Positions 5,400 to 41,170 of a stretch of DNA of 64,000 nucleotides are shown piece after piece. Within the stretch, counting starts at the first letter, position 1, and every line of letters begins with the position of its first letter. The stretch comes from Octopus vulgaris (lineage: Eukaryota), in assembly GCA_951406725.2 (NCBI GenBank), contig OX597814.1, positions 132,556,001 to 132,620,000 of the forward strand, written 5' to 3'. Below the pieces are notes generated by a model, which worked only from the letters and a program-made list of their open reading frames with translations, was not told where the DNA came from and made no database searches. A program made the position numbers and the translations under genes.

Positions 5400-5529
5400 T
5401 GCATGTATGTATGTTTATTTATGCTGGACTCTCCCGTTGGTTTCGTTTCGTTGTATGAGGCTCCGACAACGTACTCTTTCTTTGTCAGTCATAATGCTTA
5501 TGTCGAATGTGACATTTAAGTCCTGCCAA

Positions 5530-6770
5530 CGATTTACAAAGGCTGCAGATGTTGCAAGTATGAAGATTACAGGCCAGTGTCGGTGATATATTTGCAGCCA
5601 CCTTTCTCCTTTGCTTTGCACCCCGAAGCCTGTTAATGCTGGTTGCAGCAAGATTTTTAATACTATTTTGAAATAACGACTTCCAATTTGTTCGTTCCAG
5701 GGCTGTTCGCTCAAAGGTGTTGCGAGCTCTCTTCCTTTCTAAGAGGTTACTCTTCAGCTTGTCCTTATAGCTGGGCCATGGTCGAACAACGTTCCTGTGC
5801 CCATTCTCAAACTGACTTTGGGTATTCTTTCGTCACTCATTCTGATGACATGGCCTGCCCAGCGCAATTGTGATTGTATAAGGAAGCTCTCAGTTCCACC
5901 AATGTTACACTTGCTAAACAAGTCGGCATCAGAAACTCTGTTTTTTAGTGAATAACTGCAGATTGTCCTCATGCAGTCTTTGTGGAAGATGTCTAGTTAG
6001 TTAATGTGTCGTCTATAGGGTATCCACGATTCTGAGACATAAAAGAGAGTAGTAAGAATGGCTGCTTTATAGACCTGTAGTTTGTTATCAAGTTTGATAC
6101 CCTTTTCATTCCATAGGCGATGGCGGACTTTGCCAAATGCTTTGGTTGCCTTTGCAAGACTGTTGACGATTTCATCACGAAGGGAAGCGCTCTACTTTCA
6201 CTTTATTATCAAGATATGTAAATGATTTCTCATAATTATCAGGAAAATCATGAACCAGTGGCTTCAGCTTGACACTTCGAATCTGTTTAAAAGTAGGGCA
6301 ATGTTGCTGGAGTGCTTCTATTTTCTTTATGTTGATGGTCAAACCAAAGGCTTTACACACAGCAGAAACTGGTCTAGAAGTTCCTGAGCTTCCTCTAAGG
6401 AAGTCGCTACTAGTGCAGCAGCATCTGCAGAAAGTAGATCACGAATGATGCTGGTGCATAGCAGTGTTCTGGCTTTGAAACGCTGATGATTGAATAGTCC
6501 ACCACTTGTTCGAAACTGGGATTTGACACCACTTTGTATGTCGCCAAAAGCATAACTCAGCATCTCTGAAAAGAAGAGTGCAAACAAAACAGGAGCTATA
6601 ACACAACCTTGCTTTGTGCCGTTTCTAACGTCAAATGAAGCCGAAGATTCCCCACCGGACACGAGAGCAGCCTTCATTCCCTCATGAAAGATGATAACAT
6701 TCCACATCTTGTCAGGTGTACCAAGCTTTTTCAGAACTTTCCATAGCTGTTTCTTGCAATACATACTAAT
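5530..6770 (-). mobile_element. RTE (BovB-like) LINE reverse transcriptase relic
   Basis: GTKQGCVIAPVLFALFF, FRTSGGLFN, IRDLLSADAAAL (FADD region), FGLTINIKK, QLRWAGHVIRMSDERIPK; frameshifted. Confidence 0.9.
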
Positions 6771-7937
6771 ACATAAATCTAAAGCAAATTTTTTTCAGGG
6801 ACCCTAAAAATATTTTTGCGGATCCCCATTCGGATCTTTTTTGTTTGGCTGCACTTTTTGAAATGTTAAAATTAAGTGAATATTTTCAAATTTGATGTTT
6901 TGATGTAATTTTTCATGCTAAATCTGAGGGCCTAATTCACTTGTCTCTGATTTTTTTTTTTTTTAAGTTGCAGAGATTTAAAGTTTGATCATTTTCACAC
7001 TGTCAGAAAACAAGATTTGGGACTTGTCATTTCGTGCATGACTGCTATCGTAAGACGACAAAACAATAATGCCAGCATTGCGACGATAGCACGTGTTTTA
7101 AATATTTAATAAGCGAAAATAACCAAAAATTTCAGTAAAGAACAAACATATTTCGTAGTTTTGAGTATTCAATATGCATTTAATGCGAAAAAAGAGTAAA
7201 CAATACACTATGTAGTTTTAAGAGCAGAAAAACAAATTGTAAGCAAATGAAATATTTGGTAAATATACATGTTTTATACAGGAAAGTTCCCAATGCATGT
7301 CCTGTTACTATGAAAACAGGTACCTATATGTCTGTGGCTTTCGACTGGCTAAAAATACCAAAAATTTGCACATTTTGAAGCTATTAACTATGGAGATGTT
7401 GCTTATTAATTACGTATGTAACAATTATTAAAAGTACTAAAAGAAAGCAATTATTAAAGGATTGGCCGTCTGAAAATATTTTTATAAATTCATGTTCTCA
7501 GAAATTTCCTATAACTTCAATTTCTCAAGTTTTTTGAATTTTCGTAACTCCAATTTCTCGCAAATTTAAATAATCATTGCATTCACTGCGTCCAATTCTT
7601 CACAGATTTAAATATTAATTGCATTCACTGCGGAGTATTCCAGTTTCATTTGCAAAGTCTTTCGCTTTCTCTTTTAGGTTTTAATTCGCTTTTTGGAAAA
7701 CCGATATTTTATTCTATTAATGTATGCGTTATATAAAAACCATATTTATTGAATTAAATTTTTTTTTTAAATACCCGTATAATTTTTGAACGCGGGATAG
7801 CTGTGAGAAGAACCTAGAAAGTTGGGTAATTACTATTAGAAGACGAGGAGAAAAAAGTTAACAAGTACTCGAAACTTGCATCATAGTCACAGTTTCAAAA
7901 CATTCTTATACCACTAAGCCAATATATACACAAACGA

Positions 7938-16378: not shown

Positions 16379-18748
16379 ATATCGATAGTAACTGCAGATC
16401 TGTGAGATTCATTATCGTACAGCTCAAGGTATGGAAATCCGCATGTAATGCACAAGCACATCAGGTACAAGTCCTATGTGTAGAACATATGGCAGTTTAT
16501 ACCCGCCAAGATGCAGAAGAGCTATTTGTGTTGTTATGTACCTTGAACATCATATGACTTCTTTCCTCTCTTGAGTTGAACTTCCTGGACAGTTGTGTCT
16601 GCAACATCATCACTGGGATACCTGTCTAGCAATTCCATGGTGTCAAAGATGCGTGGATACTGTAAGTGGCATGGGACAATTGTTATCTAGTTCTCGTATA
16701 TCGGTGTGTTGAGGCTGCCAATGAGGTTCAGAACAATTTTTTGAATGGTTTTTTTTTTTGTTGAAACTACCTGCACGTGCACAGTCTTTCTCTAAGTATA
16801 TATTGTTTTATTTTTTTCTATTTGGTGACATGCTTTACCTTCTGATATTTTCCTTGTTCCCAAATACCATGTATAAATAGATTTTTTGAGTTTAAACTAA
16901 ATCAAGAAACATTGTCTTTAGAATTATAGTAATCGGAGACGCTCTTTCATTAACTTCCAAGGAAGATTAGTGTTTCTAATATAAATCAATAAGCGACATT
17001 ATTATCAATATTGTAATGAATTACAATTACTTTGTTATCTCAAAAAAAAGTTATACTGGCCAGCAAAATACTATCTTTTTCAGTTGCCAACAATATTTAA
17101 ATGAATTTGTGGTAATTTGGGAGCCCTAAATTTAAAAATTGCATTGTTTCACCAGATTGACTCCAGTTTTTGAAATGATGGATTCACCTTAAGCTCTTAT
17201 GTCACCTTAATACGATATACAGAGATATTTCAAAACAAGGTTAAAATGTAGATTAGGAGTAATGTTTGGTCAGAGATCATAGTACTTTGACAAACGAAAG
17301 ATTAATGATTTAGTGTTTATTATCAAATATGGAGCTCCCATATTCCAAGTGGCTACGCTATATTTTCTCAATATATTTGCTAGATGCTGTAGTGTTTTTA
17401 TCTACATATTTTACTCTTCTACAATATTATTTATTTTTTATTGCAAAACTAAATTTAAAATTATCTCTTTCATTTAATAATTCTTAATTATGGCAGGTAA
17501 TAAACTAGTAAAGATGAGTTCATCATAAAGAACCTGCTTGAATAAATAAAATGTTTTCTGTTGTATCTGTAGTGAATATACTAGAGAAAAGCATAGAAAA
17601 AAATATCATTGATTTTGTAAGCAAGCATATCTTTCTTATTTTGGAGAAAAGTTTGGATATCAAGTTAAGTCGTGAGTTCTCCATAATGTATTCAAAATCT
17701 AAGTAAATTCCTTTCGGCAATGGCCCAAAGACAAAAGAAAAAAATTAACGTCGGAGTGCCTATCGTGTGGTGAGATCTGTAAAATCCCTACGAATGATTG
17801 TTATTTTGTACTGTTAATATGAAAAGCTTCAATTACTATAAAATTACATAGGAATATCCTGATTTGGAATCTGCAAATCTACATACTAGGGAAGCTCTCA
17901 TGCTGGTACTTGCGTCTCTACCTGACCATCGCTTGTCAGATGTTGAAGAAATGCAAAGCTTAATGTCTACCACACATGGTAGCTTGGAAAATAATTATGA
18001 ATAATAAGTTTTTTGATACCAAAACTGTTCTCAAAAAAGGAAAAAAATAGGCATGATGTGTGTGCGTGTGTGTGTGTGTGTGTGTGTACGTGATTGCAAT
18101 TTATGCTCATCCACAAATTAGCAAGCATTTCGCTCAAATTTTAGGAGGACATTCGTCAACATCCTATCTAGGTTTTGTCAACTTATTTTTTTCCGGAGGC
18201 ACCCGCGGATAAGGTAAACATCTATTTTCAACCATAGCTTTTAGCCATAAAAAATATCAGCCATAGCTTTTTTGATGGCGTCTAACGAAAGAAAATACGA
18301 TAAAGAAAAGTGGGAAAAGGAGGCAGAGAGTTTCACGGGAAAGACAAAGTGAGAGAGGGAGAGAGAGAGCCATTGCTTTTTTGACGGCGTCTAACAAAAA
18401 AAATAAGATAAAGAAATGTGGAAGAAGGAGGCAGAGAGTTTCACGGGAAAGACAAAGTGAGAGAGAGAGTAAGTGACTACGTTCATAAAAATAAAATGTA
18501 AAATGTTTTGTTTTGTGTTTTTGAAAGGCACACTATATTTTATAATCATAGTATATATACTTTCTCACACAACAATTACAATATAACATAAGGGGGATCA
18601 GCCATCTGAATGTGGCTAGGGACAGGGCGGGGTGGTGGGGGTGTTACTGATGCATTTAGCCCCAGGCGATCATCGACGTCACCAGAAGGGCTGACACCAT
18701 CTCGGTGTCCTTGCCAGCCTGCAAAGGGAGATCAGCCTCCCCGAAGAT

Positions 18749-18812
18749 ACGGATACTACATACGGACCGGTTTCGAGGTATTTGCCTCTTATCAACGCAT
18801 GGTAAGCACCGT
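18749..18812 (-). ncRNA. Type I hammerhead ribozyme, copy 1 (U3-A8 variant)
   Basis: Minus strand: ACGG-TGCT-TAC-CATGCG TTGATAA GAGG CAAATA CCTC GAAA CCGG TC^CGTATG-T-AGTA-T-CCGT; predicted cleavage between 18765 and 18764. Confidence 0.85.
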
Positions 18813-19105
18813 TCTTCGTTGAGGGACCTTCTCTACAGGCTGGATATATATGGATTTTCACAGTAACCACAGTCACTGATGTAGAAAAACCGTTCGACAA
18901 CAATAATAAATCTCTGAGCGAGATATAAACAGTAACTGCTCTATAACATAAGGGGCATCAGCCATCTGAATGTGGCTAGGGACAGGGCGGGGTGGTGGGG
19001 GTGTTACTGATGCATTTAGCTCCAGGCGATCATCGACGTCACCAGAAGGGCTGACACCATCTCGGTGTCCTTGCCAGCCTGCAAAGGGAGATCAGCCTCG
19101 AAGAT

Positions 19106-19169
19106 ACGGATACTACATACGGACCGGTTTCGAGGTATTTGCCTCTTATCAACGCATGGTAAGCACCGT
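19106..19169 (-). ncRNA. Type I hammerhead ribozyme, copy 2
   Basis: Identical to copy 1; predicted cleavage between 19122 and 19121. Confidence 0.85.
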
Positions 19170-21950
19170 TACCGGTCCGTATGTAGTATCCGTATCTTCG
19201 GAGAGGCTGATCTCCCTTTGCAGGCTGGCAAGGACACCGAGATGGTGTCAGCCCTTCTGGTGACGTCGATGATCGCCTGGGGCTAAATGCATCAGTAACA
19301 CCCCCACCACCCCGCCCTGTCCCTAGCCACATTCAGATGGCTGATCCCCCTTATGTTATAGAGCAGTTACTGTTTATATCTCGCTCAGAGATTTATTATT
19401 GAATTACAATATATTTATTCTAAATCATTTATTTATTTTAAATCGTTCATCTCTCACACACAGTACTTTGGGTGCGAAAGAGTTTGTTTTTATTTTACGC
19501 CGAGTAAAAAAATGTTCTGTTGACAATCCATTTATTTAACAATAAAGAAGCAAAGAGGTGAGTAACAACTTGTCAGTGAATTACACAATATAAATGGGTA
19601 CAATTTGCGAGGCTTCCACCACACCCCACTCCGTTTCACGGTCCACAAAAAGGGTTTTGAGGCCAGAGTATTTGGTTCCATGCAAAAAAAAAAAAACGAT
19701 TTTTTTTTCTTAGTGAAAATTGTGCGAGTGTTAATCTACAAGTTTAACAACATTTTTTCCATTCATTTCTGTTTATGAACATGTATGCGTGCACAAAACA
19801 TGCAATAGGTGTACGTACGTACGTGTGTGTATGTGTGTTCGTGTCTATTTATATTATATTATATTATATTATATATAATAATAACTAATTTCAACGGATT
19901 TCGCCCAAATTTGACGTCTATGTTACTTAGTTTGGTTTGAAATAAAGAACTTGATTAACTTAATAATCGTAACTTAATCCCGGGCAAGGCCGGGTTATAC
20001 TGCTAGTCTGAAATAAGATCTCAGTCTCTCAAAGTAGTCTACTGAAACTTTGGCATTCAGGCTAAAAGAAAAGAACTGTCTACATGCAAGTTAAAATAAC
20101 AGCCTTGAAGAAAGAGAAGAGACATTTCTTCCTTATTCTATCAAACACGAAGATGTTGTCTACAGAAATAACATAGCTGAACTTTTCTCGAAATGTAACA
20201 ACTAGATTGTCGACTATAAGTATATACAGAGAGAGGTAAAGGGAGTGAATGAGAAAGAGAAAGAGCCACCTGAAGTTTGAAATGTATTTTATTACACTAT
20301 GGAAACTGTTATGTATCGTTACCAATTGGTCAGACAATATAAAGAACATAATTGTCTTTCAAGGACTCTGTTATCATGAGCGTCGGTGGTCTATTCACGT
20401 TGACTCAAAGATAGAGAATTTCTTGCTGGGATAGCAAAGTAGGAACACAAAATATCTTTGCTTCAAATGCTTGTGGGGCAAGAGAGCAAAGCAAGATCAA
20501 TTGAAAAACGTAACATGGCCTTCAATAGATAGAATAACCATAGGGAGACTGAACATCCTTTAATGGGCTATTGGCTCAAAGAGAAAATATCATTCTTCCT
20601 GTCCTCCATATTTATTTGAGACTGATGAAACAATTTGTTAAAGCTTTGAAAAGAGATGGTGATTGCTTCAAGTGCGTTTGTATCAAAAGTAGAATATCTA
20701 CTGCTGATCATATTTGTAAACTTACCAAAGATACTAGTTTTCAGAAATATATGAATGATATGGAAGTTTCTACTTGGTGTAGTTACACCTCAGTTATTGA
20801 AAACTTCTTGGGTGACAAGTAAGCAGACAATTGTGAAGAATTATGGAAAAGGTGCTCAATAACAGTATGAGTGCTGCGAGTAATATGGACATAAAAGTAC
20901 ACTCCATCCATAGGCAGTTGGACAAATTTCCACATAATCTTTGAGATTTATGTGACGAACAAAAGGTAAAGTTCCACCACGATATAACGATGATGGAAAG
21001 CTATCAAGGCAGAAATGGAATACATATAATGGCGGGACTACTGTTGGAACATTCCGATTATAGTCCTGCTACGCTACACAAAAGAAAATCATATGAACAT
21101 GAAGGACGTATATATTTTAATATTCTTAATTAGTCGATGCTATTGTCGATGCTATTGTCGTGAAAATTATTAGTTTAAAATGTCATCAAATATTTTGTGA
21201 TTAATTTTTGTTAGTTTTTTAATGTTACAATGTATACATGTTTTGGCATTTTATGTCAGAATGATCATTTTGTGTCAACATGCTTTAATAAAACTACAAA
21301 TATTTTAAATTCCATTATGTAATATGCAATTAATTAAATGACCCAATACCTAAATATCAATTCAGGCACAACTGTATCATAAAAATAAGAGGGGCTTGGA
21401 AGGCTAAGTGTTGCGAATTCTCAAATATAGGGCCTTTAAACATGTCAAAAATTAGTGCCAATGTAGGGAAACTAATGTCATTTTCAGATTCAGCACCGCA
21501 AAGTCACCCTTAAATAATTCCAATAACTTTGGCATCGAAAATAATGTGTCAATGCTACCAGCCGAATTGCCCGCTGTTCTTAGTCTGTTTCATATTTTGT
21601 CACTAGTGGGGTGCTCTACAGACAATGACTATGAGTGAGGAAGTTTTTTGTGTGCTTATTCAACTTGCCGGATATAGCAACCAAATTCTTTATTAAACAT
21701 TGGAAAATGTCATTTTTGAGCTATTGTTTGAAAACAAAGTCACAATCGTAGTATTGTGTCTATATTCTTCATTAGGAAATGTTTCACAGTGGCCGACTTA
21801 TCGAAGATGAACTGCTTTAACTCTTCTGTAGATACGTATAATGGATTCTGTCATCTCTACATGCGTACAAAGTAAATGTGTATAATTTGCATACAGCTTT
21901 AGAAAACAACTTCTTTGAAAATATCAATGTTTGAAACGATTATTTTTCAG

Positions 21951-28520: not shown

Positions 28521-28959
28521 CACACACACACACACACACATACACACACACACACATACACACACACGCATACACGCACACATACACGCACACGCGCACA
28601 CGCACACACACGCACGCACACACACGCACACACATATATACTTATATGCCCACAGATGCAAATTCACTAACAAGGCATTAGTTGGTCCGGCACTATAGTA
28701 GAAAAACTCTTGCTCAAGGTGACGCACAGTGGGACTAAACCCAAAGCCAGGTGATTCCCAAAAGGGCTTCTCATGCCTGCAACTACGACTCTGTGTGTGT
28801 GTGTATGTGTGTGTGTGTGTGTGTCCCCGTCCGTCCGTCCGAACAGCTGAGTATTTTAGCTCAAATCTTGCTTCAGGAATATCTTTATGCGTAATTGTAG
28901 TTGCTCCTCCACTATCTTATGCGTGCATCACTCTAAGATGTATAGGTGAAATAAACATC

Positions 28960-30379
28960 AGGGGTGCTCCGCCTCAAACACAGACTGAAGCAGTTACTCA
29001 GAGATTTTGCAAGCTCTTCTAAACCCATTGCAATCGATTGCAAAGCTGGTTACACTTCCATATCGTCAGCAGTTATCCCAGGGTCACAAGCGTTTCGCTT
29101 CTTAGCCTGTATGCTTTGCACGAGTGGAGTACGAATGACTGAACGAATCTTTGCCGGCCAACCTGTGTACCTATATCCTAGGTGGCTTTCTTCAGCTGAC
29201 TGGGTTCCAGCCCCATCATCTGTAGGAAATAGCGCATCGACCACGCTCAAAAGGCTCGGTAACCGACTTCAATAGGAAATTAAACTGGGTACCATCATTT
29301 TGGCAAGAACCTTGTCGACTAAGCCCGAATATTTAGTTTTCCTTAGCTGGTGGGAAATATAGAATTTGTTCTCCAAGGGTACTGTGAGTTCGACTGCGAA
29401 GATTGCTTTCGTATTCTTTGAGAGCAGGAGCATATTGGATCGGCATGATGTTACCGCTATCTCTTCTGGGAAGATGAATCTGTCCTTCAGGTTTATTAAC
29501 ATATTTCAGTCAGAAGCTGGATGCAAAATATAAAACGGGTCCCCAGCATTTGTTTTCTTCTTTGGAGCCATGTTGCCATATCTTAGTAATCTGATACCGT
29601 TTAACTGTGGTGTTGGCTGGTATTTGTTCACCTTTAACCCTTTGCACATCAATCAACTAGGCGGTTTCTGCAAGGACCTTGTCGTGTCTCCACTTGTAGC
29701 AGCCTTCAGCCGGTGCCCTAGTGCACTCGATCAAAATGTAGTTACACACCGGTTGCAAGATGAGTCTTCTTTTTCTGTGCCCCATATTTTAAGGTTATTT
29801 GGAGTTGGCAAGAGGTCAGTGACAGCACGTAGGATGAAGGAAGTCTTCCCAGAGTTCTTTCCAAGAAGGCGGATGCTCCAGTGCCTAGTCCCACTATATC
29901 CAATGTCCCTAGTGTGTAAACTCTACTCCCTTCACCCAGAGATCTTAGTCTATTGAACAACGGATCCTTTGGTAAAAAGGTAAATAAGTCAAATATAGAC
30001 AAACCACAACTGGTGAGTGGGTTTACCCCTTTCGTTACTGTATTTATTTTGAGATGCTCTGTGTTTCTTTCAATTACTTTAAATATAACAAAGAATTTAG
30101 TAAAATAACCTAGTTATCATTCAGCTAGTGTTAGGAACATAAATTGTGACTAAGGTTTGATGGAAGATTTTAATTCAGAACTTATGAAAACAAGACATTT
30201 GTACTCAGAACCAGAGCCGGTTTCAGCCGGGTTGGTAACGAAAGGGTTAAAGGCATTGACATACCTTTTTGTCCTTTTTGTAAGCTTGTATGTATGTGTA
30301 TATATAAGTATACGTATCTGTACATTATATATATATATATGAGAGAGAGAGTGTGTGTGGTATGTGTGTGTGTGTGTGT

Positions 30380-30421
<42 letters not shown>

Positions 30422-31940
30422 TGTGTCTGTCTGTCTGTCTGACTCTCTCATCCTCAGACAAGCAAATTGCTAATTGCTCTTCCCTACGTGGCTTTGAATT
30501 CGTCTACTACTAACGAAATTGGTAGGCGGGACTTAGAAGCCTTGCCGTACAGATTGACTGAGCAAGAAGTTGCGGGAAAGCCCAGCCACCTTCGCACGAA
30601 TTCTCCACTGCCTCTGTCCGAGTCATGCCGAAGATGCAAAGTAAAAATGGCCACTACAGGCTGCGTATGACGCCATACTGGAAGCACCATACCTTGAAAT
30701 TTTAAGGTAGCTGGTTTTTATCAACTACCTTCAGCCAGTCTAGTTGAATTTTAGTGTCTTCGCCATTGTCAATATCCTTAAGGGTATATTCGTAATTTTT
30801 CTCAAGGCATCGGACTCCTTATTTTCTGAAATGCTTGAACTCCCAGAGCCCTGAATGCTGAAGATATCATTTATCAATATTCCTTTGAGGATATTCAAAC
30901 TCAGAGATTTCACTGAATTGAACTTTTAGAGGGACCATATCACCATCTTTTCCAGCTATCTCAAAGTCCTCCATTCCTCGTCGTCACGGAAGCACTGCAA
31001 AGCTAAACTTTCTGTGTTTTCGTTAGTTTTGGGCCTCCTTCCTACCTGTTGCAGTAGATTAATGGTCGCCACAAACAGCATCATGTAAATTAGGCATCTT
31101 GCCAATATACCTTCTTCCAGTCTCTGCCACTTAGTGGTTACATTTTCCACGGTGAACATAATCCTCAGCAAATCTGTGTGCCATTATGAGACCGATTACT
31201 TATGCTGGTATTTAGTAGTACTCGAATGCGCTTATGTCTATCTAGTCGGCACGCTTTGGCAAGAGCCAACTATACAACAAAGAAAGAGTTATTGTTCCTC
31301 TTGCCTTCTTAATGGCATTGCCGATGTGTGTTCGAGGCATCCAGAGTAGCCTGAGAACTCTCCTTTCTGGACACTCGTATCGATGCACTCGTTGGCCAGG
31401 AGATGTGATGTTAACCTTATAGCAATGGTTTTCCTAAAGATTTTCCCCTCAACATCTAAAAGAGAGATCGGAACTGTGGAAGTTTTTGAGTTTTCTTCTT
31501 TCGAAACGAAACAGCACCCTACGAGTGTCCAGAACAAGGTCTCCTTCTACTTCTTCCAGATCAAATGTGAAAGTTTTGCTATCCTACTCAACAGCAATAG
31601 GCATTTTTTGTTTGTTTTGTATATTCTATAAGCGGGACCAGATCGCTACGAAGCAGAACTTATGTGCGCTTTTACCACCACTGCCTCACTTTGTCGAAAG
31701 TGAAGTTTGCCGTGCTGAAAGGAGTATAAGGTTTGAGCATTGGCAGTGGAAATGGGAAATCATCTGCTAACGGAATATCTCTTCTGGGGTCACCATGCAT
31801 TGCTGCTAGTCTGCACTCCATCTCATCCCTGGAGCATATTAATTTCCCACTTTATGATTTTCTGGGGAGGTTAGCTGTGAACTGAAAGAGGTTGGCGTTT
31901 TTAAAAAAAGGTCTTACTTTGCCTCATGGCTCTAGTACTT
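28960..31940 (-). mobile_element. Degraded Hero-clade (RLE) non-LTR retrotransposon, interrupted at ~30025-30440
   Basis: ISLLDVEGKIF..RLTSHLLANECIDTSVQKG..GCLEHTS; TTKWQRLEEGI..LF; FPEEIAVT..ELTVPLE..RKTKYSGL. Confidence 0.8.
30027..30246. mobile_element. piggyBac-type MITE
   Basis: CCCTTTCGTTAC...GTAACGAAAGGG|TTAA; left TTAA is imperfect. Confidence 0.75.
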
Positions 31941-31959
31941 TCTAGTTCTAAAGAATATA

Positions 31960-32362
31960 CTCATTTACTCTTTTACTTGTTTCAGTCATGTGACTGTGGC
32001 CATACTGGAGCATTAGTCGAGCAAATCGACCCCAGGACTTATTCTTTGTAATCCTAGTACTTATTCTATCGGTCTCTTTTACCGAACCGCTAGATTACGG
32101 TGACGTAAACACACGATCATCGATTGTCAAGCGTTGTTGGGTGGGTAAGGGGTGTCAAACACAGACGCGCAAAAACATACACATATACATACATATATAC
32201 GACGGGCTTCTTTCAGTTTCCGTCTACAAAATCCACTGACAAGGCTTTGGTCGACCCGAGGCTATAGCAGAAGACACTTGCCCAAGGTGCCACGCAGTGG
32301 GACTGAAACCGAAACCATGTGATTCATAAGCACGCTACTTACCACACAGCCACTCCTACGTC
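31960..32362 (-). mobile_element. SINE family A
   Basis: Full-length similarity to 2976-3370. Confidence 0.82.
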
Positions 32363-33123: not shown

Positions 33124-34835
33124 CTTTTTTTATTGGCCACACACGGCTGAACACAGAGGGGACAAACACAAATGTAGAGCTTTTCTTTTAGAAAATGAAA
33201 AAGAAAGAAAAAAAAAGAGAAAAAAAAGTAAAATTCCGATCAAAAGGGATCGGAAAATAAAAGGTGATCAAAAGGGTTTGTGTATCACAGAAGAAGTTTT
33301 AAAATGTAAGAAGCAAGATTAGGTTTATCCGTGGAAAGAAAAGCCTACGGAAAAGACCACGGTAACCTCATGAGAGCAAAATGCTCTCTCTCTCTCTCTT
33401 CGATTTACAGCATCATGCTCAAAGTGGTTTCGTCACTCGCACGCACCATCTTTGCTACATCAACCAACCTTTTTTTGAAACATTCACGAGACAAAACCTG
33501 CCTCTTTATTCTCACCTTCCTTTACAAGTGGTACTTGAAAAAGTTAATGAGCGATTGTCCAGAGAGGTAAGTGTTTGTCTCTAGTCCTTTCGCTCGAGTC
33601 CACCACACACATTCTTTCATCATGGCCACCAGTACGATAAAGACTGCCTTGCCTTCCTGATTGAAGGAAGGTGGCGGAGTAACTGTGACGATAGACTCGG
33701 CCGACAGGCGGACTCGTTCCACACGTGACAGCAGCCGTTCAGCATAAGCCCACAGATCCGAAATGGTTGGACAATGAGCGAGTGCGTGCAGAACGGTTTC
33801 GTCGCTCTGACTGCATCTCGGGCAAGTCGGTCCGGTGTGTCTCGAACCGTGCCATTAGAACTTATCCTGAACAGGTAATGCTTCTCAATAGTACTGCCAG
33901 GCCAGGGATCGTTGGTGATTGTCCCTAGGTCCCAGTCCGAGAGTTGTCCTGAACAGGCGGGTCAGGTGTTCCTCGTCGACGCCCAGATTCTGCCCGAGAA
34001 CGTCGTCGCACCTCCCCTCCACTAATCCTTTATAGAACGCTTTTGTTGTAATGAAGTCGCACAAGTTTGATCCCGGACGGCACAGTTGATTGACAGCAAC
34101 GCGACACTCGCGGTGCCATTCGCCTAGCCTCGATCCACGACTGCAGTTCGGCCAAGGAGACGAGCTGCGGGAAAGCGCGCCTCACAAACGGCGACCACAC
34201 CTGTTCACCGTCGTCTGTGAAGCGCCGGAGATGCGCATGTCTTCGCATCATCAACTACGACATGCTAGTCCTCCATTTAGCGGGTTTCGACAGTAAATGT
34301 ATCGCCTAACCATCGGATAGCTTCCCTTCCACAAGAAGCGGAAGAGTATGCGCTCCAGTTTGGTGATGGTAGGGTCGGGACAAGGCACAACGATCAGACG
34401 GTACTCGATGACAGATGCGATGTACGCGTTCGCCATCTCCGCCCGACCTTTTAGGGATAGCTTCCTCTCGGCCCATTGCTGGGTGAGAGTGGCCAACCTA
34501 GTCGTTATTTCGCCCCAGTTCTTCTCCATTTGGAGGTCCGGACCGAACGAGACTCCGAGTAATTTAACTGGTCCGTCGGTCCAGCGTCCCACGATGGAGA
34601 CGCCTTTGGACGGCATGGAATTGCTTTTCCAGGTGCTGAGGCGCAAGCCCAATGATTTTTCCCGGTTAATTTTTGCTCCCGTTACCACTTCGTATTCTTT
34701 TAGTGTCTCGCCGACCAGGTCGATGTGCTTGTGACTCGACACTATGACGGTGACGTCGTCCGCCTGTGCAGACACGCACTTCCCAGCTCTCGTGGGATGC
34801 CCCTCAGCGTCGCCAGCTTCCGCAGTAGTGGCTCA
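33123..34835 (-). mobile_element. 5'-truncated L1/Tx1-clade LINE (copy B)
   Basis: SAQADDVTV, TGAKINREKS, ERKLSLKGRA, GGL; AATAAA then (TATC)n at the 3' end; homologous to copy A. Confidence 0.9.
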
Positions 34836-34839
34836 ATAG

Positions 34840-34927
<88 letters not shown>

Positions 34928-35077
34928 CTTTTTATTGTAGCCACACAGGGCTAAACACAGAATAAAAATGGACGAAATACAATGTAGAATTTTTTCTTTT
35001 CGAGGTGGGATGGGTGGGGCACAAAAAAAACACGTTTGATCAATAGGGATCTGTGGGTTGTGTGGTGTATAAAAAAG

Positions 35078-35115
<38 letters not shown>

Positions 35116-35208
35116 TCACAGTTTAAGTGTAGCCTTGGAAAGAAAAACCTACAAAAAAGACCAAGGTCACCTCAGACAATTCGAAAAAGAACACATGAGT
35201 AAGTCGCC

Positions 35209-38200
35209 TCACTTCTCGTTGTCTCTTTTGGTTACAGATTTATGCTTAATTTTTGCCACTTTTACCCCCTTTTTATTAAAACATTCGTTCGACAAAGCCT
35301 TCCTCTCTATTCTCATCCTCCTTTTCAAGTGGTACTTGAAAAAGTTGACGAACAGGTAGTGCGTCGTCCTGAACAGGCGGGTTAGGAATTTCTCGTCGAC
35401 GCCCAGGTTTGCCCCGAGTGTGTCGTCGGACCTCCCCTCCACTAGTCCTCTATAGAACGCTTTAGTCGTTTGTAAGTTGCACAAGTTTGACCCCGGTCGG
35501 CAGAGCTGCTGTAGAGCTTGGCGACACTCTCGGTGCCAATCGCCCAGTTTCGGTCTCTTTTTGATCCACGTTTGCAGTTCGGTCAGTGAGACGAGCTGCG
35601 GAAAGGCGCGCCTCACAAACGGCGCCCACACCTGTTCACCGTCGTCGATGAAGTTCCAGAGATGCCGCAGTCTCAGCGTATGCCTGCGCATCATCAACCA
35701 CGGCATTCCCAGTCCTCCATTCAACGAATGTTGACAGCAAATGGACTTCCTCACCATCGGAACGCCACCCTTCCACAGGAAGCGGAAGAGTATGCGTTCC
35801 AGTTTGGTGATGGTGGCGTCGGGACAAGGCACGACGGCCAGGCGGTAATCGATGACGGATGCGATGTACGCCACCTCCGCCCGGCCTTTTAGAGACAGCT
35901 TTCTCTCGGCTCATGTTTGGCTGAGAGCGACCACTTTACTCGTGATCTCGTCCCAGTTCTTATCCATTTGGAGGTCCGGACTGAACCAGACCCCGAGCAA
36001 TTTAACCGGTCCGTCCGTCCAGCGTCCCACTACTAAGCCGCAGTCGGACGGCATGGGCTTGCTTCTCCAGGTGCCGAGTAGCAAACCCACTGACTTTTCC
36101 GAGTTAATCTTCGCTCCCGTCACCGTTTCATATTTTCTTTGTGTCTCGCCTATCATCTGGATGTGTTTGTCGCTCGACACTATGACGGTGACATCGTCCG
36201 CATATGCCGACACGCTCGTCCCGCGACCCAGTTCCCGTGGGATGCCCCTCAGTGTCGCCAGCTTCCGCAGTAGCGGCTCGAGAGTCAATACATACAGAAG
36301 CGCCGACAGGGGACACCCCTGACGGACCGAACGCGTGATGTCAAACGGTTTCGACAGGTGACCGTTTACCCGAATCACCGATCGGATGCTGCTATACAAG
36401 GCAGCGATCCAACCGCGGAAGACGGGACCGAAGCCAGCCGCCCTGAGGACGGCCGCCAAGATCCAAATTTATCAGCGCCCCACCCATGCCAGGATCCTTA
36501 ACTACCCTGTCCACAATTTAGCGCATCAGATGGAGGTTGTCATGTATGGTTCTGCCCGGCACGGCGCATGTTTGAGCCCTGTCGACCAGTTTACCAATGA
36601 CAAGCGCCAACCTCTCGGCTATTACTTTGGCCAAAATTTTCAAATCTGCGTTGAGCAGAGTGATGGGCCTGAAATTATCTATAAAATTCTCCTTGTTTGG
36701 GTCTTTCTTCAGCAACGTCACTGCACCTCGGCTCACGAAACCGGGAATTCTCCCGTTTTGTTACCAGTTGCAGTAGAATGATGCCAAGAGGTCGTCAAAC
36801 AAGTCTGGCATTTGACAATACAGCTCGTAGGGTAAACCATCCAATCCAGGCGACTTATCCCTCGCGCAGCCCGCCATGGCATCCCGCACGTCAGCGGCTG
36901 TGATGGGACTTTCACAACACTCTGCTTCTCTTGCCGAGAGCCGCGGCAGGTCGGTCAGGTAGGCACTGAAATCCATCCCGCGTTCCGACCCACCACTCGC
37001 ACCAAACAATCGAGCAAAGTGCTGTTGAAAGGCCTCACACATCCTTTCGGGTTCGAGTAAACTGCATCCCTGTTGATCTATTAGAGACCGAATGGTGGCT
37101 CTGTTGCCACGCTGCGCCTCCGCTACCCGGGCCTCTCGCGCAGCTTCGATCCCTTCATTCCTTAAGGCACGCATTTTAGCTCTGACGACGCAACCTTCGT
37201 GCTTGGCGTTGAGGTGTTGGTCGAGGGCCATCCTCGCAGCCATCACGTTGGTTGCGCTGCCAGTGGTAAGTGCCTCTTCTAGTTTCTTAACTAGGTCTCC
37301 CTCTACTCTGTTTCGATCTATCGCTAATTCCTTGCTAAACCTAATTGATTCCGATTTTATTGCCATTTTCAGGGTGAACCACCAGCGGTTGTTAACGACG
37401 GCTCCCGTCAGCGCCCTCTTAATTAACTCGCTAATCCGGTTCCTGTAAACCTGTCGCGCTAAGAGCGACGTGTTCAGTTTCCAGTAACCGGGACCCTGTC
37501 TATGTGTCTTATCTAAGTCGAGCGTACACGTCACAAATTTGTGATCTGTGTAGCTGACTATTTTAAATTGTGGACATCCTACACTATCCCTATCCGCTGT
37601 CCTGCATAGAATTCTATCTAGATAAGATCTCGACGATCCGACGCGGTTTGTCCAAGTCCACGTTGGCACGTTCGGATGGTCGAGTCGGAACCTGTCAGAC
37701 AAATGGAAACGTCTGAGTAGGTCTTTGAGGCACTTACACCCCCTTCTATTCCTATCCATTCCCACATAATCTAGATGCGTGTCCAAGGTAGCGTTCCAAC
37801 GCCCTACTAACAGTAAAGGTCTAGACGTACCCAGGAAAACCTCTAGACGTCTGAAGAAATCCGCCCGACCCGTTAAGGACGGTGCATAAACTGCCATCAG
37901 ACGGAATGCACACCCATTTCTGCCATCCACGTCCAAAACAACCAGCCTACCCTCCGGGTCTAGGAAATTGTTCTTACTTTTACATTTAGACTCTTTCGAA
38001 AAAGCACCGCGGTACCTCCACCACCCATGTTCGGCAGACAGGGAGAAAAATAAATGTCAAATTGATCGCCAAACATGGACGCGAGGGCCCGCGGCTTGCT
38101 GAGTCTGGTTTCACTGATAGCTACTATATCCACGTTCAGTGACTTGATGTCGTTTAGAAGGTAACCTTGCTTCCAAGCCGACGCCAAGCCACGCGCATTC

Positions 38201-38295: not shown

Positions 38296-40050
38296 TCATT
38301 TCGAAAGTTTCATTTTTTCTTCTTCTTTTGTAGTGTCTTTGATGTTGTGTTTGTATAGTTTTTTGGAGAGGTAACGTTGAAACCCGCCTACCGCATTTGG
38401 AAATATTGTTTTCAGTGTATGGTGTTGTGTTTGTGTTATGTGTACAATTTTTATGTGCTTCGGTGGTGTGGTGCGCGGATGATTGTTTGTCTTAAAGTCA
38501 TCTTCACAGATGTCCGTGTTGGATACAATATAATCCATTAATTTTTTATTGTCTGTGTCTATTGCAGTTAGTTGTGTGTGTGGTTTTGCGGGTTCATTGA
38601 TTTTTTGATTGTCTAGGGGGATGCTGTCCGGAGTTAAATATCTCCCTGCTTTACTTCCTTGTTTGGTGGACTTTTTTTATCTTTTCCTTTTACCCCCTGT
38701 GGCTATTTGCCATTCCGTCGAACTTTCGTCGTCCGACGTATCAGAAGAGGGTAAAAGCAAAGCATTTGTGTTAATATGTATGCTTGTAGAAATTGTTGAT
38801 GTTTTGTGCGGTGTTTGTGTTGTTATGGTGTTAGGGGTAGAATTTGTCTTCTCGTCACTGTTTTCTATCTTTTTAATTGTCGTCCTGGGTATTGGTGTGG
38901 GTCTATCTTTTGGTTCAGCATGATAAATTGGTTGCGTCGTCAACGGTGATTTTGTTGGTACTGTTTCTTTTCTTGGTGATGTTGTTGGGGTTTGTTTGCT
39001 GGTTTGTTGTTTTTCTTCTTGGCATTGTTCCATAATTGAGTGTGTTGGTGTTGTTTTCTGATTTGTTCTTTCTTGTTTTTTCTGTGCTAGAGCGCACTTG
39101 GCAATTTAATTCTCTGGGCTGCCACAGTTGTAGCATCTAGGCTTCTTGCCTTCTGCCACAACATATAGGCTTTGCCCATTTTCTAGGTGGATCCTATCGG
39201 GTAGGCTCTCGATAGAGGCCCCCTCAATCTGGATGGTCACTACTATTGTTTTTCCACCCCAATTGTCGTTTAGGTACACGGCTGTTTCTAAAATATTGAT
39301 CTTTTTCAAATGGTAACAGATTGCCCCTGTTATCCATTTGTTCGGGATCTCGGGGAGTACATTTTTAATAGTAATTCTACTCACTCTCTGGCCTTTGAAA
39401 TAAGGTACCATTTTGATATCATCATTTTCCAAAGACTCGGTAGAGTGAGCTTTTGCCATTTCCTGGTTAGTGAAGCGGACCACTACTGTGTTAAACTGGG
39501 GACCCCAGTTTATATATTCTTTTTATTTCATTATGCTTTTTAAACATTTTTCTATATCCGTTTTTGTAATCTGTTCATTTTGTTTTTTGTTTTTTCTTAT
39601 AATTTTATATATAATTGTCTTATTTTCTATTTGTTCCTTTATGTGTTGAGGTGTATGCAGCACTAAATCTTGCCCACGGGTTGTAAAGAGAGCTCTCGTT
39701 TCTATTAGCTCTTCATTTGTAAATGTTACTATTTCCTTCTTCTGACGCAGAGTATCAGCGAAATTTACTGGTGTTGTTGTTTTAATATTAACATCTTCAC
39801 TATTAGATAGTTCATTTTTATTGTTGTTCTTGTTGTTGTTGTTTTTCTTAATAGTATTCGCGTGAGTTTCATTTTTATCATTTATGTTGGTCGTGGTGGT
39901 AGTGGTGGTGGTGGTGGTGGAGGTGGTGGTGGTAGCAGTAGTAGTCTCGTTGTTGTTGTTAGTGGTGGTGGTGGTGGTGGTGGTGACAGGGCTGTTACCG
40001 CAAGTGGTTGCAGCGTTCACTACCACGTCATTCAGGTTTGCACTTTGCGT
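38296..40050 (-). pseudogene. Disrupted LINE ORF1 (Thr/Asn-rich N-terminus, CCHC knuckle)
   Basis: VVAEGKKPRCYNCGSPE...C knuckle; ORF fragments 39523-40026, 39106-39483, 38677-39033 and 38296-38538. Confidence 0.75.
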
Positions 40051-40351
40051 GCATACGTTCTTTTTTTTTCTCCTAGCGTTTCCAGACTAGGAAAATGCTG
40101 GTCCATAAAAGAACGCGACCAGCGTTCTACAATAAAATTTCTCGACATTAAAAAATGTCGAGAAGAAAATTACACAAATTAAATAGGGTTGAAACTGCCC
40201 CTAGGGGCGAATTCCTCCCTTGGAAAAGCACTCAAACGAAAGTTGGGTGTCTTACACACCTTATTTACAAAAATGTACACAAAATATGGGCTATAAATAG
40301 TCAAAATAAGCGATTACCTTCGGAGCCGAAGTGACAGCATGTCCGTAGATG

Positions 40352-40789: not shown

Positions 40790-41170
40790 GGGATTTTACC
40801 TTTAGAAAAGATTTTTAAAATAATTTTTTGTAACTAAATACTTTCAAACTTCGTATAATTGTAGAATGTGTCACTTAAAACATCTTTTACTCTGGGCGTT
40901 GTCGAGAAAATTCTGTATTTTGGAAGATATTTCTTGTTAAAGTTGTCGTATTTCAGTAACTTCAACCAATCAATGAAATGTATTCAGCTGACTAAAATTA
41001 CTGCCGTTGTTTGTCAAAAACAACTATCGGCGTTGTATATTTCGTTTGTCACTGTTATTTATGACATCGTTCGTGCGTTTGTACTGGTTTTAGCTTTAAG
41101 GTTTTAGGGTTAGGGTTTTAGGGTTAGGGTTAGGGTTAGGGTTGGGGTTTTAGGGTTAGAATTACGGAAA
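40790..41170. repeat. Repeat element ending in interstitial (TTAGGG)n-like tract (41100-41158)
   Basis: About 8 imperfect TTAGGG units; Helentron-associated-type element inferred. Confidence 0.55.

Follow-up and report, generated by a model that had tools for sequence, protein, structure and literature searches.

Organization of the Element

The 64,000-nt stretch of the Octopus vulgaris genome considered here (assembly GCA_951406725.2, contig OX597814.1, positions 132,556,001 to 132,620,000 of the forward strand; hereafter the window) contains a non-coding element of 816 nt at 18586-19401 that carries two hammerhead ribozyme motifs and lies between the two copies of a 12-bp target-site duplication. 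As a first-pass annotation made from the letters alone had noted, the element forms a GC-rich island (51% versus 33% in the 2 kb on either side), and the clean 12-bp duplication it had reported, AATTACAATATA, is present at 18574-18585 and 19402-19413. The same annotation described tandem 360-bp units, and the period is indeed found, since 152 of 154 bases over 18586-18739 are identical at an offset of 360 nt and 71 of 71 over 18743-18813 at an offset of 357 nt. The arrangement is not a plain tandem, however, because 19171-19401 is a third, inverted arm. Thus, the element consists of two arms whose 3' ends face outward, namely a long minus-strand arm of approximately 1.6 units and an inverted plus-strand short arm of 231 nt. 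This inverted arm and the two fixed 3' ends, on which the first-pass annotation did not remark although its coordinates take in the arm, show how the element was inserted. The features are the following, with the family unit numbered 1-360 from the predicted cut:

18574-18585, plus strand: left copy of the 12-bp target-site duplication, AATTACAATATA; its last four bases, TATA, also match end A
18586-19170, minus strand: long arm, read from 19170 to 18586, with unit positions 312-360, one full unit and positions 1-183; stops at fixed end A
18742-18813, minus strand: hammerhead 2, identical to hammerhead 1; predicted cut 18765/18764
18765-19121, minus strand: predicted cut-to-cut monomer, 357 nt
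18899-18941, minus strand: internal copy of the 43-nt tail (between ends A and B)
19106-19170, minus strand: hammerhead 1; predicted cut 19122/19121
19158-19153 with 19121-19116, and 19152-19146, minus strand: stem I and core UUGAUAA of hammerhead 1
19145-19142 with 19135-19132, and 19131-19128, minus strand: stem II and GAAA of hammerhead 1, followed by stem III, ACCGGU
19171-19401, plus strand: inverted short arm, unit positions 354-360 and then 1-224; stops at fixed end B and holds only the 3' half of a hammerhead
19361-19401, plus strand: terminal tail, unit positions 184-224, at one insertion end only; common to the sister families
19402-19413, plus strand: right copy of the 12-bp target-site duplication, AATTACAATATA

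The two identical minus-strand hammerheads and their predicted cuts, 357 nt apart, are thus as first described. The 357-nt spacing holds for this copy, whose middle unit lacks 3 nt, but not as a family length, the family monomer being 360 nt. The middle unit has five further differences from the subfamily majority, and the other two pieces have one and two; this copy is about 1% diverged from its subfamily. There is no stop-free frame of 100 amino acids within the element, and the unit has no long open reading frame (ORF).

The Repeat Family and Its Sister Families

Other copies, on whose existence the first-pass proposal depended, are numerous. The 37-nt hammerhead of the window has 33 exact occurrences in the genome, a relaxed form of its core has 227, and a 22-nt piece of the tail has 554, sister families included, while the reversed control of each pattern has none. 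A search of the 2.8-Gb genome with the unit gave 1,889 first-look candidates, 40 of which were scored. The 360-nt non-coding repeat to which the window element belongs, referred to here as family A, is dispersed in hundreds of copies, and the proposal of a young, multi-copy, non-coding retrozyme family tied to Penelope-like elements is supported.

At least two sister families share its tail. Family B (L007:2647-3006; individual loci are given as L with a number) yielded 1,043 candidates, and the copies among those listed are mostly 97-100% identical. Its core is C3-G8 with C at position 4, its stem III is ACCAUGGU, its stem II has a U-U pair at the base, and its arrays reach about ten units. 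Its singleton divergence of about 0.2% (L221-L250; L281-L300) makes it much younger than the window's family and, judged from these sequences, the best candidate for current activity among these families. Family C (L252-L280; L211:5576-5818) has a canonical core and the palindromic stem III ACUCGAGU, and is older (about 85-92% identity); its tail and two ends are the same as in the window's family. Short relatives with the shared tail and a different upstream part occur at L133:2170-2511 and L371, so the group is larger than three families. In three pairs of loci (L023/L024, L059/L060 and L358/L359), an identical insertion with identical flanks is found at two places, and such pairs, by their sequence, are segmental duplications or assembly duplicates.

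Ends, Targets and Duplications of the Insertions

For family A, 120 loci were fetched, 18 duplicates were dropped and 102 were analysed, L007 among them being mostly family B; all were selected for containing a hammerhead or a full unit. Their 3' ends cluster at two unit positions about 43 nt apart, end A at approximately 183 and end B at approximately 226, while the 5' ends are scattered. Fifty-three of the 102 loci are head-to-head, with the end pair A+B in 43, A+A in 2, B+B in 0 and a damaged or other end in 8. The remaining 49 have a single arm, ending at A in 39, at B in 8 and elsewhere in 2. Thus, A+B occurs in 43 of the 45 head-to-head loci with two intact ends, where independent draws would give it in about half (p ~3e-11). 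The same pair is found in 19 of 21 head-to-head loci of family B and in four loci of family C.

Most insertions lie in AT-rich DNA, as 97 of 144 ends adjoin a TA run and 29 other AT-rich sequence (126 of 144 together), with neither at 18. Duplications consisting of more than TA only were found in 16 of 53 head-to-head loci (14 of them 11-15 nt long), in 6 of 49 single-arm loci and in 1 of 102 controls with mismatched flanks, while in 29 more head-to-head and 12 more single-arm loci they are unreadable inside TA runs. At the inversion junction, the raw counts over 52 loci, given here with no null expectation, are an overlap of at least 2 nt in 27, an overlap of 0-1 nt in 13 and extra bases in 12.

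Penelope elements are reported to show a partial tandem, an adjacent inverted 5' copy and a tail of 30-40 bp that is often present at one end only (PMC8557442, PMC3846280; here and below, published work is represented by parts of the cited papers). In its sequence, the insertion anatomy described above fits this pattern in every point examined. We infer that the tail at one end reflects one strand starting at A and the other at B. That the family is non-autonomous and mobilized by a Penelope-like element is, in our judgement, very probable.

The Hammerhead Motif

Both motifs of the window have a stem I of 6 bp, the core UUGAUAA, a stem II of 4 bp with a six-base loop, GAAA, a stem III of 2 bp with a 2-nt loop, and the triplet GUC. 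The core nucleotides with their 3-8 pair, stems I-III and a GUH triplet, which define a type I hammerhead, are therefore all present. The core is not the canonical CUGANGA, since the 3-8 pair is U3-A8 instead of C3-G8, a variant that the first-pass annotation had not noticed. The palindromic stem III, ACCGGT, and its suitability for dimer cleavage were correctly recognized. Against Rfam, an 86-nt stretch picked afterwards gave a match to the whole HH9 model (RF02275; 28.2 bits, E 9e-6) that falls below the gathering score of 52. The alignment at hammerhead 2 takes in the UUAC bulge of stem I. Rfam gave no hammerhead at gathering level in the whole window or at E-value level in 1.2 kb, and none on an 86-nt stretch with the family C motif. 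A weak Hammerhead_1 match in locus L254 was set aside, as it falls on a different, unrelated motif.

The 61-nt motif alone folds at -13.2 kcal/mol, no better than its shuffles (z -0.4), and stem III is absent from its predicted monomer fold. Two copies of the stem III palindrome pair with each other at -9.7 kcal/mol, as expected for cleavage in a dimer. The ends of the predicted monomer pair into a long rod of -107.5 kcal/mol (z -3.1, and about -3 whether linear or circular). Among 25 motifs of the three families, chosen to represent distinct variants among 102 distinct motifs, pair 3-8 is C-G in 15 and U-A in 10, and one pair of stem I switches likewise. Overall, 91% of the cells pair, and the covariation score was reached by none of 500 shuffles. 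Moreover, stem III is palindromic in all three families despite three different sequences, while the base of stem II is a G-C pair in family A and mismatched in B and C. By this sequence comparison, the hammerhead is kept by compensatory change, and self-cleavage of the unit RNA as a dimer is predicted from the folds and the alignment. Selection on the inserted copies themselves was considered and rejected: private changes are equally frequent in the core (5/808) and elsewhere (109/17,737), and inserted copies thus decay neutrally.

The RNA Template

Copying that starts at A or B crosses the cut after 183 or 226 nt; therefore, a cleaved linear monomer cannot yield longer arms. A total of 125 of 146 arms cross at least one cut site by at least 10 nt and 27 cross two or more, and in family B, at loci chosen for full units, arms cross up to 11. 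None of the 146 arms has its 5' end exactly at the cut site, and a pile-up of 5' ends that had appeared there was an artefact of the query start that vanished after exact mapping. In family A, 5' ends are in excess at unit positions 301-330 (p 0.004 before correction for approximately 12 bins), but a sharp transcription start near position 302 could not be established, since the excess is broad and absent from family B. A TATA-like run is found at 18852-18842 on the minus strand (unit positions ~272-281), with AT-rich counterparts in families B and C.

The uniformity of the arrays bears on the same question. Among 26 loci of family B, seven rare variants occur in every unit of their own locus, six of them in both arms, where chance would give fewer than 0.3 coincidences, and 69 rare variants occur in a single unit. 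The 26 loci comprise 17 haplotypes, mostly uniform within a locus and across both arms. Units of family A differ by 1.6% within an arm and by 1.7% between arms, mostly through private changes. Variants fixed across all units are explained by repeated copying of one monomer, for which a circle is the simplest route. A source array that was already uniform would likewise hand on its variants to every unit, but this would shift the repeating step back by one generation and not do away with it. A circular template, as already proposed in the literature (PMC4209133, PMC7229834), appears on balance probable.

Candidate Helper Elements

Matches to four Penelope proteins were found in 10 of 185 loci, which comprise families A, B and C and picks anchored on the tail. 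No reverse transcriptase (RT) ORF is joined upstream and in the same direction to a unit in these 185 loci, so the unit is very unlikely to be simply the pseudo-long terminal repeat (pLTR) of an autonomous element, a possibility that the first-pass annotation had raised. In the closest case, L078, the insertion lies in a TA run next to an ORF that is broken, and upstream of any unit there is always another unit or target DNA. Locus L211, considered as a helper for its 38-nt tail match, was rejected because the match lies 600 nt past the end of that element, in an independent insertion of family C. Five other families of Penelope-type ORFs have no DNA similarity to the unit.

The genome contains several families with RT and GIY-YIG endonuclease domains, intact elements with the CxxxxCxxC linker among them. 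By the linker criterion of PMC8557442, the latter would be of Neptune or Nematis type. One of them has many intact ORFs of 781 amino acids, the UUGAUAA core as in the window, and ends in TA runs, and its own tail of approximately 37 nt, a small hairpin followed by UUAUUAU, is loosely like the window tail when compared by eye and after the fact. This family might be the helper, although we regard the identification as doubtful.

Other autonomous Penelope-type families were observed alongside. A very young one (L411-L422) has many near-identical intact ORFs of 775 amino acids, and no hammerhead was noticed in its 1-kb 3' region. By eye, the families at L201-L220, L211, L219 and L321-L350 appear to have several core variants: U3-A8, C3-G8 with C4, A3-U8 with the window's ACCGGU stem III, and GCAA in place of GAAA. 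A further group (L151-L159), which may resemble the Hydra clade, has long asparagine-rich stretches between RT and endonuclease; the one member tested had no Pfam match.

Proposed Mechanism and Alternative Explanations

Taken together, the element is a dispersed hammerhead repeat that was likely copied and inserted by a Penelope-like enzyme, probably of Neptune type, from an RNA predicted to cut itself as a dimer and likely to form circles. Transcripts of tandem copies would be cleaved at paired hammerheads and, as seems fairly probable, ligated into 360-nt circles. The helper endonuclease would nick both strands of AT-rich DNA about 12 nt apart, and each nick would serve as primer for reverse transcription from an internal RNA position, A for one nick and B for the other, a step for which an enzyme dimer is probably responsible and in which we have rather more confidence than in the circles. 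The enzyme would pass the ribozyme junction repeatedly, in as many as about ten rounds, and joining of the far ends of the two complementary DNAs would produce the head-to-head insertion. Such priming and nicking have a counterpart in the purified lizard Penelope protein, which cuts both strands of AT-rich DNA and starts reverse transcription at two internal RNA sites bounding the tail, with a predicted dimer (PMC11167929; Frangieh et al. 2024).

Several observations weigh against this explanation. The first crossing of a cut site is partly built into the arm counts by the choice of loci, and the covariation comes from three related families and hence from few independent events. In the 26 family B loci, 16 rare variants are present in only some units; the 12-unit locus L281 (L281:1193-5448) is a mosaic that a single circle does not explain, and L284:738-2509 is also a long array with blocks of different haplotypes, patterns that suggest template switches, local duplication or assembly error. 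Of the 25 family A arms of sufficient length, 10 have their 5' end 31-60 nt upstream of the second cut, and this excess might correspond to the point where a linear transcript begins. None of 164 fetched stretches (some overlapping) around Penelope-type ORFs contained an autonomous element with the same tail, and DNA likeness to the unit in them is limited to separate sister-family insertions and weak matches of at most 37 nt. From the published side, uncleaved RNA is the main substrate in the purified Penelope system (PMC11167929), and in vitro cleavage was seen in only 1 of 9 Xenopus retrozyme dimers (10.64898/2026.07.22.740005).

Alternatively, the family may be mobilized by Penelope but copied from linear multimeric transcripts that stay uncleaved, the hammerhead having no role in the template and the uniformity of arrays arising by template jumps, local duplication or gene conversion. 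Hammerhead mutants left insertion in vitro unchanged (PMC11167929), the excess at 301-330 lies approximately 30 nt downstream of the TATA-like run, which by its sequence is a possible internal promoter, the arrays at L281 and L284 are mosaic or block-wise, and the rare alleles of family A are mostly confined to one unit (211, versus 20 in two or more). However, copies are shortened at the 5' end with every round, yet ten-unit arrays persist; the family B haplotypes are largely uniform at so low a singleton divergence, the 5'-end excess lacks a sharp start and a family B counterpart, and the hammerhead is kept by compensatory change. We therefore consider a linear template possible but somewhat unlikely. 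That the unit is the terminal repeat of an autonomous Penelope yet to be found, with the loci as its 5'-truncated remains, would agree with ends, tail and inversion, which are exactly as in autonomous insertions, and the autonomous families were sampled at 148 to 150 scored candidates per query among thousands. The structure upstream of every unit, the lack of a joined same-direction RT ORF in the 185 loci and the absence of a long ORF from the unit nevertheless make this very unlikely. Lastly, duplication-flanked inverted arms resemble a miniature inverted-repeat transposable element (MITE), and the hammerhead-like motif, which folds no better than shuffles and scores under the Rfam gathering level, might be incidental to a fold-back, MITE-like or satellite repeat spreading as DNA. 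Such an origin is scarcely credible, being already largely refuted by the end anatomy and the compensatory changes: 3' ends are fixed while 5' ends scatter, the arms are unequal with different end points, single-arm copies make up 49 of the 102 loci, and pairs change together in the ribozyme core.

Returning to insertion from a circularizing RNA, we would tentatively go further and suggest, with reservations that leave it short of an even prospect, that these families are a genomic record of rolling-circle reverse transcription of retrozyme circles combined with asymmetric A/B double priming across a stagger of about 12 bp. If this is true, the circle as template and Penelope as helper merge into one testable mechanism, which would also account for two general features of Penelope elements, the tail and the inverted 5' copy. 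The formation of inverted ends by Penelope elements, the purpose of their hammerheads and the identity of the helper of animal retrozymes, for which there are so far proposals, become testable with an element of 360 nt that has hundreds of young copies and two sharp start sites and shares its genome with young intact Penelope ORFs.

The Locus as a Source of RNA and Its Surroundings

Read-through transcription of the minus strand meets the inverted arm first, and stem I is preceded by no more than 12 nt of the long arm. Folded as an ensemble, the complete element is predicted to form stem I of hammerhead 1 with a probability of 0.00 and hammerhead 2 with 0.79-1.0, whereas both hammerheads form when the inverted arm is left out. 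The inverted arm is thus predicted to block hammerhead 1, so that a 357-nt product would need a transcript starting almost exactly at the inversion junction. By this folding model, release of the monomer from this locus is improbable, and this copy is probably not a source. None of the sequencing runs that contain the unit is recorded as RNA. Contigs from three presumed-RNA runs and one run of unspecified kind cover the unit and its tandem joint, but the joint also exists in DNA, and such contigs are uninformative on ends, strand, circles and levels.

The element had been called intronic, but no host gene was shown by Pfam, exon-like frame or contig checks. Of 193 frames, 78 candidates were left once apparent transposon frames had been set aside, and none of these had a Pfam match; the exon-like plus-strand frame at 17852-18001 has only weak atlas matches; and the contigs over 16380-18040 are three unspliced pieces in one of four runs, with no splice joints. 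A gene with long introns around the element is compatible with these checks. Two exon-like plus-strand frames, at 17852-18001 and 21456-21635, flank the element and have plausible splice signals; neither matches Pfam, and spliced contigs were not seen for them. A 108-bp tandem repeat of unrelated sequence (1.9 copies, 91% match) lies close to the element on its left side, at 18259-18469. Elsewhere in the window, the translations indicate broken RT/endonuclease frames of long interspersed nuclear element type and a gag-like frame (33500-38100, 38300-40100, 5400-6800 and 28900-32000), and a short interstitial run of TTAGGG type lies at 41086-41159.

Comparison with Known Systems

The 360-nt units carry hammerheads, are non-coding, are dispersed in many copies and are flanked by duplications of more than 4 bp, which places them among retrozymes; the GC content of the element, 51%, is borderline with respect to the retrozyme trait of less than 50% (PMC7229834). 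It has no ORF for a telomerase-like RT with GIY-YIG endonuclease, the mark of an autonomous Penelope. Mussel retrozymes of 350-390 bp that yield circles have been described (PMC7229834; Cervera and de la Peña 2020), and vertebrate retrozymes were found to derive from Penelope pLTRs, with 24 of 57 Xenopus families matching known elements (10.64898/2026.07.22.740005; Li, Clavereau and Pollet 2026). Like metazoan non-long-terminal-repeat retrozymes, the octopus element is built of non-coding units a few hundred bases long that are repeated in tandem and each contain a type I hammerhead; it also shares with them a self-paired monomer, a duplication of more than 4 bp and a proposed Penelope helper, whereas its U3-A8 core sets it apart. 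Many Xenopus retrozymes have known elements of origin, while no pLTR of origin was found for the octopus unit. The two ends, their A+B pairing, a 12-bp duplication and (TA)n targets are undescribed in the parts of these two retrozyme papers compared here.

Endonuclease-bearing Penelope elements of Neptune and Nematis type (PMC8557442, Craig et al. 2021; PMC3846280, Arkhipova et al. 2013; PMC11167929) likewise have a partial tandem with an inverted 5' copy, a tail at one end, AT-rich or microsatellite targets, duplications of approximately 8-15 bp and a hammerhead upstream of two start sites. The octopus unit differs in having no RT or endonuclease ORF, in its tail of 43 nt versus 30-40, and in that its repeat is the whole unit rather than pLTR plus ORF. 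The U3-A8 variant is known from Schistosoma Cercyon elements (PMC4209133; Cervera and de la Peña 2014), and the Penelope hammerhead variants share with the octopus motif both this pair and a short palindromic helix III implying dimer cleavage. With helices of 6, 4 and 2 bp (I, II and III) and a bulge in stem I, the octopus motif corresponds to the canonical full-length form, not to the minimal one. MRC1-like elements of Chlamys (PMC8557442) are likewise non-coding Penelope dependants with multicopy head-to-tail insertions, but they usually share 3' sequence with their helper and most have no canonical hammerhead.

An annotation of octopus repeats (PMC13282606) lists 31 recently active Penelope-like families, and its main text nowhere uses the word 'ribozyme'. 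No paper on cephalopod retrozymes was found by title or start of abstract, in a search that had subscription papers and repeat databases outside its range, and the strict A+B count and the argument from array uniformity were not found in the literature searched. As far as those sources go, the frequent restriction of the tail to one end and the circle hypothesis are both already in print. Thus, the octopus element represents a new family of a known kind, as mollusc retrozymes of similar size are already published, and its value lies in the clean mechanistic record of Penelope integration that it provides rather than in the family itself.

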